A stretch of DNA of 64,000 nucleotides from a candidate division WOR-3 bacterium UBA2258 (lineage in GTDB: Bacteria > Hydrothermota > Tepidihabitantia > Tepidihabitantales > Tepidihabitantaceae), in assembly GCA_002347155.1 (NCBI GenBank), contig DDXO01000025.1:10853-74852 (forward strand). The letters run 5' to 3'. The notes beneath the pieces are model-generated. The model saw only the letters and a program-made list of their open reading frames with translations. It made no database searches and was not told the origin of the DNA. The position numbers and the translations under genes were made by a program. Shown here in pieces: positions 6,847 through 15,358 of this stretch. Each line of letters opens with the position of its first letter. Position 1 is the stretch's first letter.

Positions 6847-6951
6847 CCGCCTTCGGCCGTCCGCCTCTCGGGACTCCTAACTTGTCCAGGACGTGGGCAG
6901 CTCAGCCGCACTTGTCCAGAATCCGGAATCCAGTCGGCAATTCGCCGGTGC

Positions 6952-6980
6952 TTGACAGACAAGGAAGACGGATGTCTAAT
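6952..6980 (+). promoter_or_regulatory. sigma70-type promoter of surface-protein paralog 1
   Basis: TTGACA, 17 nt spacer, TCTAAT. Almost identical blocks occur at 10036-10064 and 11679-11707. Confidence 0.65.
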
Positions 6981-7096
6981 CAGATTGATGGAATCGGGTA
7001 ATCGTAGCCCGGTGACCATCCCGGCATCCGGCAGCAACGGGAGGCCTGCTGGATGCTGCAGCAGAGATGCAGCCTCCAACTAGCAAAGGAGAGCAG

Positions 7097-9913
7097 ATGC
7101 CTAAGAAGGTGGCAGTCCTGACAACCATCGTCGCGATGCTCGCCGCGACCGGCTTAGCGAGCACCACGACCACCGCGGCCACACCGGCGCCCGGTCCGGC
7201 GGTGCCGGCGGCGCAGAGGACAAGCCCGGTGCCGGCGATGCAGACATCGGTAACGGGAAACACCGGCCGTCCTATCATCCAATGGGACAAGTTCTACGAT
7301 AGAAACGGCAATCCGCTGCCGGGCGGCCCGCAAGAAGGTGTTGCCCCCGACTCGCTCTACTGGAAGGACTTCAACAGCACCACGTACTTGAAGTCGTCGG
7401 CCAAGGTCCAGAGTCCTTCTCCAGCCAACCGCACTGCGATGTCGTTCCACGACGCCCAGTCCACGGTCTGCATGGACCCGTATGGGAACTATGTCTATGA
7501 GGTAAACGGCACCAATCTGTACCGGTTCAGCACGGTTGACGGCTCGATGACCACGTACACCCTGTCGTACTCGGGCGGGCTGGGATGCGCAACCGACGGT
7601 CAGTACATCTACCGCCCGGACGGGACGACGATGTACAAGTACACGATGACCGGCTCCTACGTCAACTCAACCACGACTGACTACTCTTGCGATGCGTATT
7701 CGGTATCGTGCTGCCGTGATACGGTCTGGTTCACAGACGACCGGTACAACGGAGTGAACATCTACGGCTATGCCTGTTCCAAGTTCACCGGCGGCAGCAT
7801 CACCCACGATGCCACGTGGAACGTCGGCACCGGCACCCTCGGCGTCGGCAACATCGCCTGGGACGGCGAGTACTTCTACCTGGCATGGATCGGCACCAGC
7901 CCCATCACGTTCAAGCGGTTCTACTCGGACAGAACGCTCTATTCGACCGGCACCGTGAGCATCGACCCGCGCAGCGTGATGTGTGCCGTGCCCTACCGAC
8001 GACAGGTGACGCAGGATTCACTCTACTGGAAGAGCTACTACAGCACCTCTCTCATCTACTCATCACCCAAAGCCCAGGATGTGACCCCGGCCCAGGCAAC
8101 TCCTTCTCCCTGGCAGTACGACCAGTCCCTGTCGTGCATGACCCCGGACGGCCACTTCCTTTTCGAGGTATACGGCACGAACCTGCGGCGAACCGACCTC
8201 TGGACCGGCGCGGTGAACAACTACACCCTGGCCGATGCCAGCGGCGGCGCATGTGGAACGGACGGTGAGTACGTCTACATCCCGAAAGGCACGACGACGC
8301 GCAAATACACGCTGGACGGGACCCTGATCAGCACGACCACGACTGACTACGCGCCGTGGGTGGACGCCAGCACCTTCGGCTTCGGAGTTGCCAACGACAC
8401 GGTCTGGCTCACCCCTGCCGAGGATGGCACGACCTGGTACGGCTATACCTGTTCGAAGTTCACCGGCGGCAGCATCACCCACGATGCGACGTGGACCACG
8501 GGCGGCGGCTCCGCTGCTGCTATGAGCGTGACCTACGACGGTCAGTACTACTACATGACCTGGGGCGGCTACGGCTCCAACACGTTCCGGCGTTTCTACC
8601 GTGACCGGACGCTCTTTTCGAGCGGCACCGTCAACCTCGACCCCCGGGGCGTGATGTGCGAGGCGGTGTGTCCGCTGATGATTGTGACTACCGACCTTCA
8701 GACCTACCGGACCGACTTGGCCGAGACCCTCAGGGTCGCGAGCGGCGGGACACTCGACCTTATCGGCACCCTCAGCTTGGACGTGAACGCGACATTCCCG
8801 GCAACCGCGTGGTACAACGACGGGTGCCGCGTGATACTTGAGTTCTCCGGCTCTCCCATTCCCGCCACGCCTGCTCTCATCGGTGACAGCCTGGCCAGGT
8901 TCGTCGACCTCGGCGGACGAGTTGTGACTGCGACGTGGGCCGACCAGATAGGCAACCTTGCCGGCCGCTACGTGGACCAATACATGCCGTTCACGATGCA
9001 GCCTCAGGCTGGCGTCGGGGGCACGATGAGCACGGTGCACAACCCGCTCCATCCGATAATGGACGGAGTGACCGCGCTGGCGGTGGACAACTACTTGACC
9101 GGCAACACGCACACTACACTGCGCAGCCCGAACTGCGTCTGTCTGGCCGAGTGGGACAGCAACAACCGCTCGGTCGCCGCCTACCTGGACAGCGCGGGCG
9201 TGCGGCTGGTATCTGTGGGCTTTGTACCGTTCAAGAATTGGTCCGGAGCCACTGGCCAGTGGGCGAGGCTCCTGGTCAATGCGATTCTCTGGGTCTGGCC
9301 GGGTATGCCAGCCGTCGGCGTAACCGCACCCGACACCGGTGACGTCTGGGTCGTCGGAACATCGCAGGACATCACGTGGACCGCGGCCAACGGGCCGATC
9401 ACCAAGGACTCGATTGTCTACAGCAACGACAACGGCGCGACCTGGAACTTCCTCGACAAGAACACTGGCTCGCGGACCAGCTACACCTGGAACCCGATAC
9501 CCAACACACCGAGCACGGACTGCTACGTCCGGGTATTCACCTGGAACGCAGTCGGGACGGGCTTCGGTACGTCCGGTAAGTTCGAAATCCAAGTGGGTGG
9601 CGGCATCGAACAGCCCGAGAACAACGCCCTGCCGCTCGCCTTCGCCCTGTACCAGCCCTACCCCAACCCGTCGGCTTCAGGCACACAAGTCCGCTACGCC
9701 CTGCCGCGCCCGGCCCGGGTCGAACTGCACGTCTACGACGTGACCGGCGCGCTGGTGCGTCGCCTCGTCGAAGGCACGCAGCCGGCCGGGTACCAGCACG
9801 CCTACTGGAACGGGTGCGACGACCGCGGCCGAGCTGTCGCGCCCGGCGTCTACTACTGCCGCTTCAAGTCTGGCGACTACGTCGCCACGCAGAAACTGGT
9901 CGTGCGCAGATAA
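7097..9913 (+). CDS. Secreted surface protein with T9SS-type C-terminal sorting domain (paralog 1 of 3)
   Basis: Start at ATG 7097 after AAAGGAG, with signal peptide MPKKVAVLTTIVAMLAATGLA. There are two copies of a roughly 230 aa Cys/Trp/Tyr-rich module, then a roughly 200 aa domain shared with paralog 2, then an Ig-like domain. The tail YQPYPNPSASGTQVRYALP...VELHVYDVTGALVRRL...GVYYCRF is typical of Por/T9SS CTDs. Confidence 0.85.
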   Translation: MPKKVAVLTTIVAMLAATGLASTTTTAATPAPGPAVPAAQRTSPVPAMQTSVTGNTGRPIIQWDKFYDRNGNPLPGGPQEGVAPDSLYWKDFNSTTYLKSSAKVQSPSPANRTAMSFHDAQSTVCMDPYGNYVYEVNGTNLYRFSTVDGSMTTYTLSYSGGLGCATDGQYIYRPDGTTMYKYTMTGSYVNSTTTDYSCDAYSVSCCRDTVWFTDDRYNGVNIYGYACSKFTGGSITHDATWNVGTGTLGVGNIAWDGEYFYLAWIGTSPITFKRFYSDRTLYSTGTVSIDPRSVMCAVPYRRQVTQDSLYWKSYYSTSLIYSSPKAQDVTPAQATPSPWQYDQSLSCMTPDGHFLFEVYGTNLRRTDLWTGAVNNYTLADASGGACGTDGEYVYIPKGTTTRKYTLDGTLISTTTTDYAPWVDASTFGFGVANDTVWLTPAEDGTTWYGYTCSKFTGGSITHDATWTTGGGSAAAMSVTYDGQYYYMTWGGYGSNTFRRFYRDRTLFSSGTVNLDPRGVMCEAVCPLMIVTTDLQTYRTDLAETLRVASGGTLDLIGTLSLDVNATFPATAWYNDGCRVILEFSGSPIPATPALIGDSLARFVDLGGRVVTATWADQIGNLAGRYVDQYMPFTMQPQAGVGGTMSTVHNPLHPIMDGVTALAVDNYLTGNTHTTLRSPNCVCLAEWDSNNRSVAAYLDSAGVRLVSVGFVPFKNWSGATGQWARLLVNAILWVWPGMPAVGVTAPDTGDVWVVGTSQDITWTAANGPITKDSIVYSNDNGATWNFLDKNTGSRTSYTWNPIPNTPSTDCYVRVFTWNAVGTGFGTSGKFEIQVGGGIEQPENNALPLAFALYQPYPNPSASGTQVRYALPRPARVELHVYDVTGALVRRLVEGTQPAGYQHAYWNGCDDRGRAVAPGVYYCRFKSGDYVATQKLVVRR

Positions 9914-9937
9914 GCACCGACCGGCAGCCAAATCACA

Positions 9938-9959
9938 GGGGCGGGCTTCGGCCCGCCCC
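9938..9959 (+). terminator. GC-rich stem-loop terminator after paralog 1
   Basis: GGGGCGGGC-TTCG-GCCCGCCCC: perfect 9-bp stem with a TTCG tetraloop, 25 nt after the stop. Confidence 0.6.
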
Positions 9960-10035
9960 GCCTTCATCCACACTCAACCCTCCACCTCCGGTATTGCACA
10001 TTGCACATTCCACGTTCTTTTCACGTAGTCAGACC

Positions 10036-10064
10036 TTGACAGACAGGGAAGACGGATGTCTAAT
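10036..10064 (+). promoter_or_regulatory. sigma70-type promoter of surface-protein paralog 2
   Basis: TTGACA, 17 nt spacer, TCTAAT. This is a duplicated cassette. Confidence 0.65.
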
Positions 10065-10181
10065 GAAGTTGATAAGACTCGGCGGTCATGGCCCAATGTC
10101 CGCACTCCGGCATCCGGCTGCAAGGGAGGCCGGCCGGATGCCACAGAAGCAGTGACGCCTCCCGCCAACGAAGGAGAACAG

Positions 10182-11564
10182 ATGCGCATGCGCCAGAAGG
10201 TGGTAGTTCTGACAGCTCTTATCGCGATGTTGTCGGGCGTGAACCATGCGAACACCAGCCCAGCGATTGGTGACGCCCGAAACGTGAAAGGCAGGGGTTG
10301 CGGCAGCAAAGTCATGGTATGCCATGCCGCGTTCTATCGCGACACGGTCGCAACCCTGTGCCAGATGCTTGTCGACTCATCCGACGGCAGGTTCACCTCG
10401 GCCGACACATACTACATCGGCAGCGGCGGGCACACCACCTTCCCGGTTACTGACTGGTACAACCAGGGCTGTCGGGCGATCCTGGCGTTCACGGAATACC
10501 CTCCGGCGGATACGACCGCGCTCGGCGACAGCCTTGGCCGCTTCATCCAACTGGGCGGTGGCGTGGTTGAGGCGGTGTTCGCGGACTGCACCCCCAATCA
10601 AATCAAGGGAGCCTGGCGCTCAACGTATGCTCCTTTCAGGGTCTCGTCACCATCCGGCACTCCGGGCTCAATGGGCACGGTCCGCCAGCCTTTCCACCCG
10701 ATGATGTCGGGCGTATCCGCAATCAGCGTGGGCGGCTTCCGCACCGGGAACAACAACGGCTCGCTCCGTGGCCCCAACTGCGTCAGCCTGGCCGAGTACA
10801 CAGATGCCGGGCTCTGCCTCGCCGCATGCTTCGACAGCGCCGGCGGGCGCGCCGCCTCCCTCGGCCTGTTCCCGCTGACCTACTGGCAGTCATCCGCCTC
10901 CGGCCAGTGGTGCCGGCTGATCGTGAACGCGCTGGACTGGACTGCGGTCGGGCCGAGCGTGGGCGTAACCGTGCCCAACGGCGGTGAGACCTGGCACGCC
11001 GACTCGGTCTACAACATCACCTGGACCCAGACCGACAACGGAGTCAAGGACTCGATATACTACTCGACCAACGGCGGATCGAGCTGGACCGGCGTGGCCT
11101 TTCTCGCCACGCCGCCGGCCCCGCTCCAGTACGCCTGGACCGTACCGGCCACCCCGACCACGCGGGCCCGGGTCAAGGTTGTAACCTGGAACGAAGACGA
11201 CGGCAGAGTCGAGGACGCAAGTAACGCCAACTTCACCATCGGGTCGTCCGGCGGCATCGAACAGCCCGAGAACAAAGCCCTGCCGCTCGCAATCGCCCTG
11301 TACCAGCCCTACCCCAATCCGCTCGCAACCGGTACCCAGCTACGCTACGCACTGCCGCTCCAGGCCCGGGTCGAACTCCACGTCTACGACGTGACCGGCG
11401 CGATGGTGCGTCGCCTCGTGGAAGGCACGCAGCCGGCCGGGTACCAGCGCGCCTACTGGAACGGCTGCGACGACCGCGGCCGGACTGCCGCGCCCGGCGT
11501 CTACTACTGCCGCTTCAAGGCCGGCGACTTCCAGGCAACGCAGAAACTGGTCATGCACAGATAA
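10182..11564 (+). CDS. Secreted surface protein with T9SS-type C-terminal sorting domain (short paralog 2 of 3)
   Basis: ATG 10182 after GAAGGAG, with signal peptide MRMRQKVVVLTALIAMLSG. It lacks the duplicated N-terminal modules but shares the central domain, the Ig-like domain and the CTD with paralogs 1 and 3. Confidence 0.85.
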   Translation: MRMRQKVVVLTALIAMLSGVNHANTSPAIGDARNVKGRGCGSKVMVCHAAFYRDTVATLCQMLVDSSDGRFTSADTYYIGSGGHTTFPVTDWYNQGCRAILAFTEYPPADTTALGDSLGRFIQLGGGVVEAVFADCTPNQIKGAWRSTYAPFRVSSPSGTPGSMGTVRQPFHPMMSGVSAISVGGFRTGNNNGSLRGPNCVSLAEYTDAGLCLAACFDSAGGRAASLGLFPLTYWQSSASGQWCRLIVNALDWTAVGPSVGVTVPNGGETWHADSVYNITWTQTDNGVKDSIYYSTNGGSSWTGVAFLATPPAPLQYAWTVPATPTTRARVKVVTWNEDDGRVEDASNANFTIGSSGGIEQPENKALPLAIALYQPYPNPLATGTQLRYALPLQARVELHVYDVTGAMVRRLVEGTQPAGYQRAYWNGCDDRGRTAAPGVYYCRFKAGDFQATQKLVMHR

Positions 11565-11587
11565 ACACAGACCGGCAGCCAAATCAC

Positions 11588-11609
11588 GGGGCGGGCTTCG
11601 GCCCGCCCC
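11588..11609 (+). terminator. GC-rich stem-loop terminator after paralog 2
   Basis: The same GGGGCGGGC-TTCG-GCCCGCCCC hairpin, followed by GCTTTCGC. Confidence 0.6.
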
Positions 11610-11678
11610 GCTTTCGCTCACACTCTACCCTCCACCTACGGTATTGCACATTCCACGTTCTTTTAACGTAGTCAGACC

Positions 11679-11707
11679 TTGACAGACAGGGAAGACGGAT
11701 GTCTAAT
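11679..11707 (+). promoter_or_regulatory. sigma70-type promoter of surface-protein paralog 3
   Basis: TTGACA, 17 nt spacer, TCTAAT. This is a duplicated cassette. Confidence 0.65.
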
Positions 11708-11823
11708 GAAGTTGGTAAGACCCGTTTGTCATGGCCCAATGTTCGCTCTTCGGCATCCGGCTGCAATGGAGGCCAGCCGGGTGCAGCGGCAGGCGTGACG
11801 CCTCCAGACACTAAGGAGGATAG

Positions 11824-14637
11824 ATGCAAGAGAAGGTGGTAGTTCTGGCAGTCCTGGTCACGATGCTGGCGACGTTCGGCTTCGCGACCACCAACAACCT
11901 GATCCCGGTGCCGGCTCTCGACCCGGTCACCCGGCCCGCCCGGCCGCCCGCGGTCCGGATCCCGGACCACGACAACACGTCTCGTCCGGTCGTTCACTGG
12001 GACAGGTTCTATGACACAAACGGCAACCCCGTGTCCACCGACCCGCAGGACAACGTCGGCGCTGACTCCCTCTTCTTCAAGCGGTACAGCGTGACCGACA
12101 CCCTTTATGGCTGCCCCAAGTCGCAGGTCCCGAACCCGTCACCGACGGCCTGCCGTACCGGATTTGCGTTTCTCGATGGTCAGACCCGGATCGGCATGGA
12201 CCCGGCCGGGACCTATCTCTACGAAGTGAACGGAACCTCGCTGTGCCGACACAACACCAGCACTGGGACCTACGTGTACTTCACTATCACCAACGGCAAC
12301 TCCGCCTGCCGCACCGACGGCAACTACCTGTACGTACCGGTAGGCGACGTCGTCTACCGTTACACCCTGACAGGTAGCCTGGTCAGCCAGACAACGCTCA
12401 ATATCACTCCCAATCAATGGAACTTCTCGCTCGCCAACGACACGGTATGGTGTGGCACCGACTCCATACTCCACGGCTACGCCTGCTCGAGATTCACCGG
12501 TGGCTCGATATCTGAAGACGCCACATGGAACGTCGGTACCGGCAGTTCTGCCCCCGCGTTTGTGACCTGGGACGGGCAGTACTACTACGTTGCCTGGAGC
12601 GGCTTCAGCAGCAACACATTCAAGCGGTTCAACGCCAATCGGACCCTGTCAGCCAGCGGTACAGTGAGCACCGATCCGCGCGGCTTGATGTGCACGGTCC
12701 GAGGCACGCGGCCGACGACGCAGGACTCACTCTACTGGAAGCTCTTCTCCAGCGCGACCAACCTCTACTCGTCGCCCAAAGCCGAGAGCGTGACTGCGGC
12801 CCAGCCGACGCCGTTTGCCTGGCAGTACACTCAGGCCGTGTCGTGCATGACCCCGGACGGCCACTACGTGTTCGAGGTGAACGGGACCAACATGCGGCGC
12901 ACCGACCTCATGACCGGCGCGGTGAACAACTACACCCTTGCCGATGCCAGCGGCGGTGCATGCGGAACTGACGGCGAGTACGTCTACGTCCCAAATGGGA
13001 CCACAACTCGGAAGTACTCCCTTACCGGGACGCTGGTTAGCTCTACCACGACTGACTACGCGCCGGCGGTCGGGGTCAGCACGTTCTGCTTCGGCGTTGC
13101 GAACGACACGGTCTGGATTTCACCCACCCTCCCCGGCGCGACCTGGTACGGCTACGCCTGCTCGAAGTTCACCGGCGGCAGTATCACGCACGATGCGACC
13201 TGGTCTACGGGCGGTGTGCAAAACTCAGCGATGACCGTTACCTGGGACGGCCGGCACTACTACATGGTCTGGGGCGGACAAGGCACCAACACGTTCAAGC
13301 GCTTCTACCGCGACCGGACCCTCTTCTCCGACGGAACCGTGACCGGCGACGCCCGGAGCGTCATGTGCAGGAAGGGCGACTACGCGGTGATGGTCTGTCA
13401 CGGCGAACCGGATACCGCGAACGTAACGAGTTTCCGACAACTGCTGGTTGACTCCGGCGGAACGAGGTTCGCCGCTGTTGATACCTACGACATCAGTACA
13501 GGCGGGCACGCCGCCTTCCCGGCGACTGACTGGTACAACCAGGGCTATCGGGCAATACTGACGTTCACCAACGATAACCCCGCGGATTCGGCCGCCCTGG
13601 GCGACAGCCTCGCCCGTTTCGTCCAACTAGGTGGCGGCGTGGTCGAGGCCGTGTTCGCCGACCAGACCGACAACTGCATCACGGGCGACTGGCGCTCCGG
13701 CTTCGCTCCGTTCACCGTACAGAGCACAGAGTATTCCGCAGGCTCGATGGGCACGGTCCACCAGCCGCTCCACCCGATCATGTCGGGAGTCACCGAACTC
13801 GCAACCGACAACTACCGCACGGGCAACACCCCCGGCACCCTGCGCAGCCCCAACTGCATCAGCCTAGCCGAGTACACGGACGCCAATCGCTGCCTCGCCA
13901 CGTGCTTCGACAGCGCCGGCCGGCGCGCTGCCTCCCTCGGCATGTTCCCGCTCACCTACTGCTACACGACGATTACCGGACAGTGGCTGCGCCTGCTGGT
14001 GAACGCCATCAACTGGGTCGCGGTCGGGCCCAGCATCGGCGTAACCGCGCCCAACGGCGGTGAAACCTGGAACGGCGGCTCGGTTCACAATATCACTTGG
14101 ACCCAGACCGACAACGGGGTCAGTGACTCAATCTACTACTCGACCGACGGAGGCGCGAGCTGGATCGGCGTGGCCCACTACCCCACGCCGCCCGACCCCC
14201 TCCAACACGCCTGGACCGTACCAAACACCCCGACGACCCAGGGCAGGGTCAAAGTCGTGACCTGGGATGAGAACGGCGGCCGGGTCGAGGACATAAGTGA
14301 CGCCGACTTCACCATCCCGGCGGTCGGCATCGAGCAACCCCGGAAGGACGCCCTGCCGCTCGCCTTCGCTCTATTCCAACCCTACCCCAACCCGTCAGCC
14401 TCAGGCGCACAAGTCCGCTACGCCCTGCCGCGCCCGGCCCGGGTCGAACTCCACGTCTACGACGTGACCGGCGCGCTGGTGCGTCGCCTCGTGGAAAGCA
14501 CGCAGCCAGCCGGGTACCGACGAGCCTACTGGAACGGCTGCGACGACCGCGGCCGGACTGCCGCGCCCGGCGTCTACTACTGCCGCTTCAAGGCGGGCGA
14601 CTTCCAGACCACGCAGAAGATGGTCGTGCGCAGATAG
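11824..14637 (+). CDS. Secreted surface protein with T9SS-type C-terminal sorting domain (paralog 3 of 3)
   Basis: 937 aa with the same architecture as paralog 1. TAAGGAGG SD, signal peptide and a conserved CTD. Confidence 0.85.
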   Translation: MQEKVVVLAVLVTMLATFGFATTNNLIPVPALDPVTRPARPPAVRIPDHDNTSRPVVHWDRFYDTNGNPVSTDPQDNVGADSLFFKRYSVTDTLYGCPKSQVPNPSPTACRTGFAFLDGQTRIGMDPAGTYLYEVNGTSLCRHNTSTGTYVYFTITNGNSACRTDGNYLYVPVGDVVYRYTLTGSLVSQTTLNITPNQWNFSLANDTVWCGTDSILHGYACSRFTGGSISEDATWNVGTGSSAPAFVTWDGQYYYVAWSGFSSNTFKRFNANRTLSASGTVSTDPRGLMCTVRGTRPTTQDSLYWKLFSSATNLYSSPKAESVTAAQPTPFAWQYTQAVSCMTPDGHYVFEVNGTNMRRTDLMTGAVNNYTLADASGGACGTDGEYVYVPNGTTTRKYSLTGTLVSSTTTDYAPAVGVSTFCFGVANDTVWISPTLPGATWYGYACSKFTGGSITHDATWSTGGVQNSAMTVTWDGRHYYMVWGGQGTNTFKRFYRDRTLFSDGTVTGDARSVMCRKGDYAVMVCHGEPDTANVTSFRQLLVDSGGTRFAAVDTYDISTGGHAAFPATDWYNQGYRAILTFTNDNPADSAALGDSLARFVQLGGGVVEAVFADQTDNCITGDWRSGFAPFTVQSTEYSAGSMGTVHQPLHPIMSGVTELATDNYRTGNTPGTLRSPNCISLAEYTDANRCLATCFDSAGRRAASLGMFPLTYCYTTITGQWLRLLVNAINWVAVGPSIGVTAPNGGETWNGGSVHNITWTQTDNGVSDSIYYSTDGGASWIGVAHYPTPPDPLQHAWTVPNTPTTQGRVKVVTWDENGGRVEDISDADFTIPAVGIEQPRKDALPLAFALFQPYPNPSASGAQVRYALPRPARVELHVYDVTGALVRRLVESTQPAGYRRAYWNGCDDRGRTAAPGVYYCRFKAGDFQTTQKMVVRR

Positions 14638-14660
14638 CCGCCGACCGGCACTCAAATCAC

Positions 14661-14682
14661 GGGGCGGGCTTCGGCCCGCCCC
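14661..14682 (+). terminator. GC-rich stem-loop terminator after paralog 3
   Basis: GGGGCGGGC-TTCG-GCCCGCCCC followed by GCTTTCTT. Confidence 0.65.
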
Positions 14683-15358
14683 GCTTTCTTGCCGAACCTG
14701 ACTTGGCGGAAGTATCGAAGGAAGGCGAGTCAGCGAGGCTTTCTTGCGGAGCGACCGCAACCTCAGCCCAGGCTTTTTGGTCATCGGCAAGTCGTCAGCT
14801 TTCGGGGTCAACCATCGCCTCTAAATATGTAGTATACTACATTCTCCCGCGCCCGCCGGTTCTTGTCTTAACTTCCGTATTCTCAATTCACTATTCACCG
14901 TTGCCTTCCCGCCCCCTCCTATGCCTCCCGCGCAGCTTCCCTTGTTTCCTCCGAAGCAGCAATCCGAGGAACTTCCCGAGGTACGACGGCAGCTACCTCT
15001 TCAACCATTTGCACCGCTATCTCGTCCGCTACCTTCCGAGTTGCGGTGCAGGCTCCTTGTTCGGTTCCTTGCCGAACGACAATCATCGCTACTTCCCACG
15101 GTCAATCCTGAGCCCCAGTCCACGTTCCCGTCCAAGCACCTTCCCAAACTCCTCTGCAGGCAACATGCCGAGCTGCCTAGCGAGCAGAAAGGAGAGCCGC
15201 GGCGCAAAATGCACGGCCCCCGCAAGTCGACACCGAAGCAGGTCAGGAGCTGGCGGCCATCCGGCATCTCACGTTGAAGACCGCAGATTGGCCGCGGCTT
15301 GACTCAGGGCAGCGGGATTCTAGACTGTGCGCAGCGTCCGCTGACCCAAGGAGGAACC

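Follow-up and report, generated by a model that had tools for sequence, protein, structure and literature searches.

Three neighbouring genes for secreted surface proteins lie on the plus strand of a 64,000-nucleotide stretch of contig DDXO01000025.1, from the candidate division WOR-3 bacterium UBA2258. This stretch is referred to below as the window. Each of the three genes is preceded by an untranslated leader of about 115 bases of the same type. The leaders share one order of elements: a promoter-like pair, a GC-rich hairpin (P2) with GGAGGC in its loop, the sequence GCCUCC (anti-SD), the Shine-Dalgarno sequence (SD) and the AUG. In the wider set of copies collected here, all 19 lie directly upstream of one family of cargo proteins of the type IX secretion system (T9SS). 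We tentatively read the element, with confidence a little short of even, as a lineage-specific cis-acting leader of about 110–125 nucleotides (nt) for T9SS genes in WOR-3 (Caldifarciminota), in which competing pairings may set translation initiation. The case for this reading is made by conservation and complementarity, not by covariation or experiment.

Occurrence and conservation of the leader

The three leaders, with their hairpins, GGAGGC loops, GCCTCC and SD sequences, are present as described in the original prediction, which had been made from the letters of the window (Table 1). A variable stretch of 35–40 nt separates the promoter-like element from P2. The composite pattern GGAGGC-N18-40-GCCTCC-N6-30-GGAG occurs three times on the plus strand of the window, compared with 0.02 times in shuffled sequences.

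Further copies were sought by three routes. Species-representative genomes were scanned with the proteins as a guide; genomes and metagenomes were scanned for the promoter pattern, a choice meant to leave the RNA part unbiased; and contigs encoding homologues of the proteins were inspected. A covariance model of the kind suggested in the original prediction was built from seven copies and used to search the collected contigs. The final set comprises 19 copies, 18 of them distinct, on WOR-3-type metagenome contigs. Besides the three in the window, four form a tandem array at locus L018, two each are found at L026 and L031, and single copies occur at L001, L003, L015 (identical to one of the L026 copies), L016, L020, L032, L083 and L218. 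Two broad scans with DNA patterns returned mainly chance matches in GC-rich genomes and gained only L083 and L218. Beyond these copies, the covariance model detected nothing, either elsewhere in the 64-kb window or across about 420 kb of related contigs. No leader copy is present at the more distant paralogues L021, L025, L030 and L033, and the leaders of L021 and L025 are unrelated. The leader is kept across different metagenome-assembled genomes (MAGs) whose proteins are only 40–70% identical.

The original prediction had not recognised a known riboswitch or leader family, and the same conclusion is reached here. The covariance models of Rfam 15 gave no match in the whole window at the gathering threshold. 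At E ≤ 10 the single match within 6900–11900 is a spurious mir-449 located elsewhere. The leader arrangement is absent from Rfam, and the literature searched gave no instance of it.

Conservation, expressed as the majority fraction, reaches 0.99 in the loop GGAGGC (five of six columns invariant) and 0.97 in GCCUCC (four of six). It is 0.92 in the 5′ arm of P2 (8 of 12 columns invariant), 0.89 in the 3′ arm (4 of 12) and 0.89 in the SD (3 of 6). The spacer between the anti-SD and the SD has a value of 0.77 and the linker between P2 and the anti-SD a value of 0.70, with none of 14 columns invariant in either. The linker is 14 nt long, and 13 nt in two of the 18 distinct sequences; the gap from the loop to the anti-SD is 26 nt in 15 of 17 sequences and 25 nt in the other two. 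The distances from the anti-SD to the SD (about 10 nt) and from the SD to the AUG (4–5 nt) are fixed across the copies. That the linkers diverge in sequence but not in length, while the blocks they separate are near-invariant, points to selection acting on the blocks and on their geometry. The compact conserved core spans about 45 nt and contains the invariant unpaired bases GCAA and GGAGGC.

Predicted alternative pairings of the anti-SD

GCCUCC is complementary to the loop of P2 on one side and to the SD on the other. The helix of 6 base pairs (bp) between the loop and the anti-SD, GGAGGC:GCCUCC, is 98.1% paired over the collected copies. An unbiased scan of column pairs, with pairing required in at least 80% of the sequences, ranks GGAGGC/GCCUCC first; the P2 core, a slipped register of P2 (columns 19–23/33–37) and CUCC/GGAG come next. 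The helix between the anti-SD and the SD, CUCC/GGAG(G), has 4–5 bp and is 92.5% paired, and this bears out the claim that GCCTCC is complementary to the real SD. C35 and G62, both invariant, pair with each other in the loop:anti-SD helix and have no partner in the anti-SD:SD helix. Two variants, L020 and L026:10483, carry GCCUCU and each have a G.U pair in the loop:anti-SD helix; a G.U pair is retained in both of the alternative helices.

The complement of the loop lies downstream of the hairpin, as a pseudoknot would need, and the connecting loops would be 4–5 nt (first), 0 nt (second) and 13–14 nt (third). By our own estimate these lengths would allow a classical H-type pseudoknot, its helices stacked coaxially.

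The mean duplex energy is −12.6 kcal/mol for the loop:anti-SD helix and −8.3 kcal/mol for the anti-SD:SD helix. Prediction of the nested ensemble leaves the SD largely paired, with a mean unpaired probability of 0.0–0.37 in 14 of 17 distinct leaders. Opening of the SD costs 3.8 kcal/mol on average in this ensemble, and 2.4 kcal/mol when the anti-SD and the loop are blocked, the state that a pseudoknot would create. In the window copies, a nested pairing of the loop with the anti-SD requires the melting of P2 at a cost of 6–10 kcal/mol, and therefore only a pseudoknot would allow this pairing there. In the other subfamily the cost is 0–6 kcal/mol, since an upstream CAGCCG offers the 5′ arm another partner. 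This sequence stands just upstream of the hairpin in L015, L016, L018, L026, L031 and L032 (for instance, L018:1829–1851). With CGGCUG of the 5′ arm it forms an alternative hairpin of 6–9 bp that excludes P2. GGAGGC:GCCUCC can then form as a nested helix, which is the minimum free energy structure in L018:1790. The CAGCCG/CGGCUG hairpin was rejected as a general feature, since it is absent from the window copies.

Several other candidate structures were tried and rejected. P1, the hairpin predicted in the variable 5′ part, differs between the subfamilies and is not established as a conserved helix, its 10-copy consensus amounting to only −2.9 kcal/mol. A pairing of the 5′ arm of P2 with the end of the linker (columns 12–17/57–62) is 81% paired compared with 8–51% in slid controls; it is unsupported, with its central pair unpaired in 10 of 16 sequences and no covariation. 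A pairing of the 5′ arm with the start-codon region (columns 13–18/91–96) is solid only at CAU:AUG. For instance, GGCAUC of the 5′ arm (7023–7028) is complementary to GAUGCC (7096–7101), and the 6 bp exist in copy 1 and in L016; position +4 is C in 15 of 17 copies, and only CAU:AUG is general.

An intrinsic terminator or attenuator was also rejected. The 3′ arm of P2 is followed by GCUGCAGCAG, CACAGAAG or AGCGGCAG in the three copies, with no U-run, and a terminator scan gave no match in the leaders. The 3′ arm itself contains an AUG (7050–7052 and 10136–10138) or GUG (11779–11781) located 8 nt past the GGAGG of the loop, a perfect distance between an SD and a start. The upstream open reading frame (uORF) that would begin there is 22 codons long in copy 1 and 5 in each of the other two. 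A regulatory uORF was rejected: 7 of 17 copies have ACG or GCG in place of the start, the frame varies, and the uORF is anywhere from 3 to at least 49 codons long. The AUG of the 3′ arm is probably incidental, because it is not conserved in the other copies.

Stability and covariation of P2

The three hairpins of the window are more stable than their shuffles, with energies of −23.1 kcal/mol (z = −3.24), −24.7 kcal/mol (z = −3.91) and −21.4 kcal/mol (z = −3.67) in copies 1, 2 and 3, respectively. The folding energy of the whole leader is ordinary in copies 2 and 3 (z = −0.66 and −0.90). P2 is 90.2% paired over the 18 distinct sequences. Its inner 5 bp, UCCGG/CCGGA, are paired in all copies, and most of these pairs never vary.

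The original prediction had held that the stem is maintained through compensatory changes, and this is not borne out among the homologues. One column pair of the stem is A-U, U.G and U-A in the three window copies, just as described, but only three pairs of P2 show two-sided changes among the distinct sequences, each in one sequence only. The covariation score is 0.101, compared with 0.085 ± 0.007 in shuffles, and 13 of 500 shuffles reach 0.101. The homologues also carry changes that are not compensatory, in the outer stem and at pair 22–38, and such changes had been named in the original prediction as grounds for refuting it; among the non-canonical cells of P2, 8 fall at pair 14–46, 7 at 16–44 and 4 at 22–38. 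A further covarying pair had been proposed to extend GGAGGC/GCCTCC (columns 29–68, G-C in copy 2 and T-A in copy 3). It is G/A in copy 1 and unpaired in 14 of 16 sequences, and is therefore a chance coincidence. The layout of SD look-alike, anti-SD and SD holds up as conserved, non-random and fixed in spacing, while its covariation is weaker than had been claimed.

Almost every mismatch of P2 is of the A.C or C.A type, and several lineages have them at the same three positions (for instance, L018:4295–4385, L032:7915–8006 and L083:3241–3331). Tolerance of A.C wobbles, an alternative partner and protein recognition are possibilities for their recurrence.

Several of these findings weigh against a translational control by competing pairings. 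Covariation does not support the pseudoknot helix: none of the six loop:anti-SD pairs has a two-sided change in the 18 distinct sequences, and four of the six are invariant. Uncompensated breaks are found in L031:2938, where the loop reads GGCGGC, and in L018:9915, where the anti-SD reads GCCCCC. The anti-SD:SD helix likewise shows no covariation. Since the anti-SD:SD helix has only 4–5 bp over a 10-nt loop, only a modest change in SD accessibility is predicted, averaging about 1.5 kcal/mol, and it is not consistent from one copy to the next. With 21 non-canonical cells, P2 is not uniformly maintained. Its stability spans −10.5 to −28.3 kcal/mol across the copies, and for L018:9915 and L083 does not exceed that of shuffles. 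Mismatches of the A.C type are about as many as G.U pairs, so that there is no strand asymmetry. Finally, the 5′ arm is better conserved than the 3′ arm, and this bias hints at sequence-specific recognition or another partner.

Promoter-like element

A 29-nt element, TTGACAGACA(A/G)GGAAGACGGATGTCTAAT, precedes each of the three window leaders, with 3 matches compared with 0 expected. Its pair of hexamers is TTGACA / TGTCTAAT, the −35 hexamer being the consensus, and it would act as the promoter of the leader. CTTGAC and TGT(C/T)TAAT are the only parts of the promoter region that every further copy retains in the full-length alignment; the spacer has diverged in L018, L020 and L083. The conserved spacer was thus ruled out as an operator, and its identity within the window reflects close relationship. 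A generic sigma-70 scan misses the element because the second hexamer has C at position 2. This hexamer (6975–6980 and its equivalents) is TCTAAT or TTTAAT after TG in all copies, without the usual A at position 2, and the pattern may bear on how promoters are recognised in this phylum. None of the RNA sequencing runs searched holds the window sequence, and the DNA runs that do hold it belong to a hydrocarbon metagenome.

Downstream genes

The three paralogues of the window share 51–57% identity. All begin with a sequence resembling a signal peptide and end in a FlgD_ig / T9SS type A sorting domain, and TIGR04183 scores above its cutoff in them. In gene 1, whose open reading frame (ORF) runs in frame from 7097 through 9913, Pfam FlgD_ig matches at 1.5e-10 and TIGR04183 at 37 bits compared with a cutoff of 23. 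No further domain or solved structure was matched for the paralogues. The closest relatives come from MAGs that bear the label candidate division WOR-3; the phylum is now called Caldifarciminota. SD sequences are present on many genes of the host.

The N-terminal half of the two long paralogues (7097–9913 and 11824–14637), at residues of about 60–520, is an internal duplication of a unit of about 230 amino acids (aa); this half is entirely missing from gene 2. The recurring motifs of the unit include MDPxGxYxYEVNGTxLxR, TDGxYxYxPxG, NDTVW, YGYACSKFTGGSITHDATW and WDGQYYY...NTFKRFYRDRTL; the unit has no match in Pfam, NCBIfam or PDB. A GC-rich terminator-like hairpin, GGGGCGGGCTTCGGCCCGCCCC, follows each gene (9938–9959, 11588–11609 and 14660–14683). 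The block made of the 3′ end of a gene, this hairpin and the next leader is duplicated nearly intact (9800–10215 resembling 11450–11860), which points to a duplication or gene conversion of recent date. The row at L018 holds five or more genes of this kind. At L020:9389–12193 the gene behind the leader appears to be split into an ORF of 199 aa and an ORF of 730 aa located 12 nt apart; the split is probably due to a frameshift or nonsense change, in a pseudogene or through an assembly error.

Table 1. Positions in the window of the three leaders, their elements and the genes behind them.
Feature	Position	Strand	Remarks
Promoter-like element, copy 1	6952–6980	+	TTGACA 6952–6957, 17-nt spacer, TG + TCTAAT 6973–6980
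Promoter-like element, copy 2	10036–10064	+	exact pattern match
Promoter-like element, copy 3	11679–11707	+	exact pattern match
Variable 5′ part of leader 1, predicted hairpin P1	6986–7020	+	RNAfold
P2, copy 1	7023–7057	+	5′ arm 7023–7034, 11-nt loop 7035–7045, 3′ arm 7046–7057
P2 pairs, copy 1	7024–7034 / 7046–7056		11 bp including one G.U
P2 loop GGAGGC, copy 1	7040–7045	+	
P2, copy 2	10109–10142	+	5′ arm 10109–10120, loop 10121–10130, 3′ arm 10131–10142
P2 pairs, copy 2	10109–10120 / 10131–10142		12 bp including one U.G
P2 loop GGAGGC, copy 2	10125–10130	+	
P2, copy 3	11752–11785	+	5′ arm 11752–11763, loop 11764–11773, 3′ arm 11774–11785
P2 pairs, copy 3	11753–11763 / 11774–11784		11 bp including one G.U
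P2 loop GGAGGC, copy 3	11768–11773	+	
Linker from hairpin to anti-SD, copy 1	7058–7071	+	14 nt
Anti-SD GCCUCC, copy 1	7072–7077	+	complementary to loop GGAGGC and to SD
Anti-SD GCCUCC, copy 2	10157–10162	+	
Anti-SD GCCUCC, copy 3	11800–11805	+	
SD AAGGAG, copy 1	7086–7091 (GGAG 7088–7091)	+	ATG 7097–7099
SD GGAG, copy 2	10173–10176	+	ATG 10182–10184
SD GGAGG, copy 3	11815–11819	+	ATG 11824–11826
Gene 1	7097–9913	+	938 aa, secreted, T9SS type A C-terminal sorting domain
Gene 2	10182–11564	+	460-aa paralogue without the N-terminal duplicated region
Gene 3	11824–14637	+	937-aa paralogue

Discussion

The elements of the leader can be joined in a model of translational control, which agrees in outline with the switch put forward in the original prediction. 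Transcription would start a few bases past TGTCTAAT. The GC-rich P2 would form and present GGAGGC, a look-alike of the SD, at the 3′ edge of its loop, and GCCUCC, emerging 26 nt later, could pair with the loop through 6 bp. Since GGAGGC directly abuts the 3′ arm, the loop:anti-SD helix would stack on P2 as in a classical H-type pseudoknot. Alternatively, the partner of GCCUCC would be the real SD, some 10 nt further on, in a helix of 4–5 bp. With GCCUCC captured by the loop, the SD would be free (ON); once released, GCCUCC would mask it (OFF or dampened). Candidate triggers are temperature, a protein, a ligand and the 30S subunit itself. The better conservation of the 5′ arm, together with the tolerated A.C mismatches, suggests something more, such as a protein or an alternative partner. 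A bolder version of the model, which we consider very unlikely, is a new class of sensor with ON logic, in which a signal stabilises the capture of the anti-SD by the SD look-alike; the synthesis of T9SS surface proteins in WOR-3 (Caldifarciminota) would be tied to this signal. The signal could be a second messenger, a small ligand, or free 30S binding to the decoy GGAGG.

A leader that boosts expression constitutively, with no switching, is unlikely. The exposed GGAGG would be a decoy or standby site for 30S, like the STAB-SD established for cry3A (PMC4113751), and the hairpin or pseudoknot would help to protect the mRNA, that of an abundant surface protein, from decay at the 5′ end. The leader does have an SD-like GGAGG in a loop of its 5′ untranslated region (5′ UTR) with no conserved start codon after it, and the uORF is unconserved in start, frame and length. 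The consensus −35 hexamer and the genes themselves, which encode secreted surface proteins and often stand in tandem arrays, point in the same direction. The STAB-SD of Bacillus thuringiensis cry3A is likewise a non-initiating SD-like GGAGG in the 5′ UTR of a gene for a highly expressed protein; it is single-stranded near the 5′ end of the mRNA and works with RNase J1 in Bacillota (PMC4113751). In the WOR-3 leader, by contrast, the look-alike sits in a hairpin loop well inside the leader, about 40–65 nt from the predicted 5′ end, and has a conserved complement in cis. A STAB-SD needs no anti-SD. GCCUCC is left unexplained by this alternative, and would even compete with 16S rRNA for GGAGGC. 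The stability of the hairpin, moreover, is not conserved.

Recognition by a protein is somewhat less probable still. A repressor of the CsrA/RsmA type, or another RNA-binding protein, would bridge as a dimer the A(N)GGA of the loop and the A(N)GGA of the SD, and block the ribosome. The loop reads CAAC-A-GGAGG (AAGGGA, AAUGGA and ACGGGA in the window) and the SD region (A)ACAGGGAGG or AAGGAG. Two GGA motifs thus lie about 46 nt apart, one in a hairpin loop and one at the SD, as in the CsrA targets Bacillus subtilis hag and Escherichia coli glgC. A loop (A/C)(A/G/U)GGA together with an SD AAGGA/AGGGA is found in all copies except L031:2938, which has GGCGG. The fact that the sequence is conserved rather than the pairing, and that the 5′ arm is the better kept, also fits recognition by a protein. 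The hag and glgC leaders share with ours a GGA in a hairpin loop and a GGA over the SD tens of nt downstream; a conserved CCUCC between the sites is not needed there, and a CsrA-type repressor gives no role to the near-invariant GCCUCC. A tblastn search with E. coli and B. subtilis CsrA gave no match in the window and 34 related loci, which at 424 kb are far from a whole genome. No link of CsrA to WOR-3 was found in the literature searched.

A small-ligand riboswitch, in which the hairpin and the pseudoknot make up an aptamer and a ligand stabilises the capture of the anti-SD as an ON switch, is highly improbable. The core is compact, the linker fixed in length, and the geometry like that of small H-type riboswitches; second-messenger riboswitches also control surface proteins. 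Against this, there is no relevant Rfam match even at the permissive E-value, the leader occurs only before one family of paralogous, non-metabolic genes within a narrow clade, the stem is poorly kept in some copies, and nothing gives a clue to any ligand. The known H-type pseudoknot riboswitches (preQ1-II/III, SAM-II, SAM-V and fluoride) are also small, with a loop that pairs with a 3′ tail near the ribosome-binding site. They differ in that the SD lies inside the pseudoknot, the ligand turns expression OFF and a ligand pocket is conserved, whereas the pseudoknot of the WOR-3 leader would hold the anti-SD, with ON logic, ahead of non-metabolic genes.

Equally improbable is the absence of any RNA function, with the similarity stemming from a recent tandem duplication of promoter-proximal DNA, from its gene conversion, or from an inverted repeat serving as a DNA-level operator for a transcription factor: two of the window leaders do belong to one duplicated block, and the arms are an inverted repeat of 8–10 bp in which G.U and A.C are equally frequent and no strand is preferred, but the leader is conserved block-wise across diverged MAGs, copy 1 is similar to the others only from the −35 element onward, and the relation of loop GGAGGC, GCCUCC and SD would be meaningless at the level of DNA.

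Competition between an anti-SD and an anti-anti-SD next to a ribosome-binding site, possibly as a pseudoknot, is a well-known principle. In the timP mRNA of timPR, a type I toxin system of Enterobacteria, a pseudoknot in the 5′ UTR helps to free a sequestered SD with no ligand or processing (PMC13000454). Pseudoknot and alternative pairings govern access to the SD there as they would in our model. In timP, however, the SD lies in a stable stem-loop opened by a long-range interaction, and the mechanism was shown experimentally (PMC13000454). The WOR-3 leader is unrelated to timP in sequence, host and gene class, its SD partner is a short CCUCC, and its mechanism is predicted from sequence. A likeness also exists to the ROSE and fourU thermometers and to the anti-antisense activation of rpoS, in that the SD is covered by a weak intramolecular helix whose anti-SD strand may be drawn off by a third element. 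The SD of our leaders is likewise predicted to be paired in a weak and imperfect helix, CUCC/GGAG(G). The sequence motifs of those systems are different, and the competitor in rpoS is a small RNA acting in trans. What is distinctive in the WOR-3 leader is a conserved copy of the SD in a hairpin loop as a competitor in cis, standing before a T9SS cargo family in an uncultured phylum.

The leader is narrow in distribution, and its mechanism is a proposal. If it is a protein site or a stabiliser instead, it would be an ordinary lineage-specific leader. If translation is set by the competing pairings, the leader would represent a compact and easily testable form of translational control, in which the competitor for the anti-SD is a copy of the SD encoded in cis in a hairpin loop, where it forms a pseudoknot. 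It would then rank among the earliest regulatory RNAs reported from the uncultured phylum WOR-3, and would offer a handle on the control of a multi-copy family of T9SS-secreted surface proteins.

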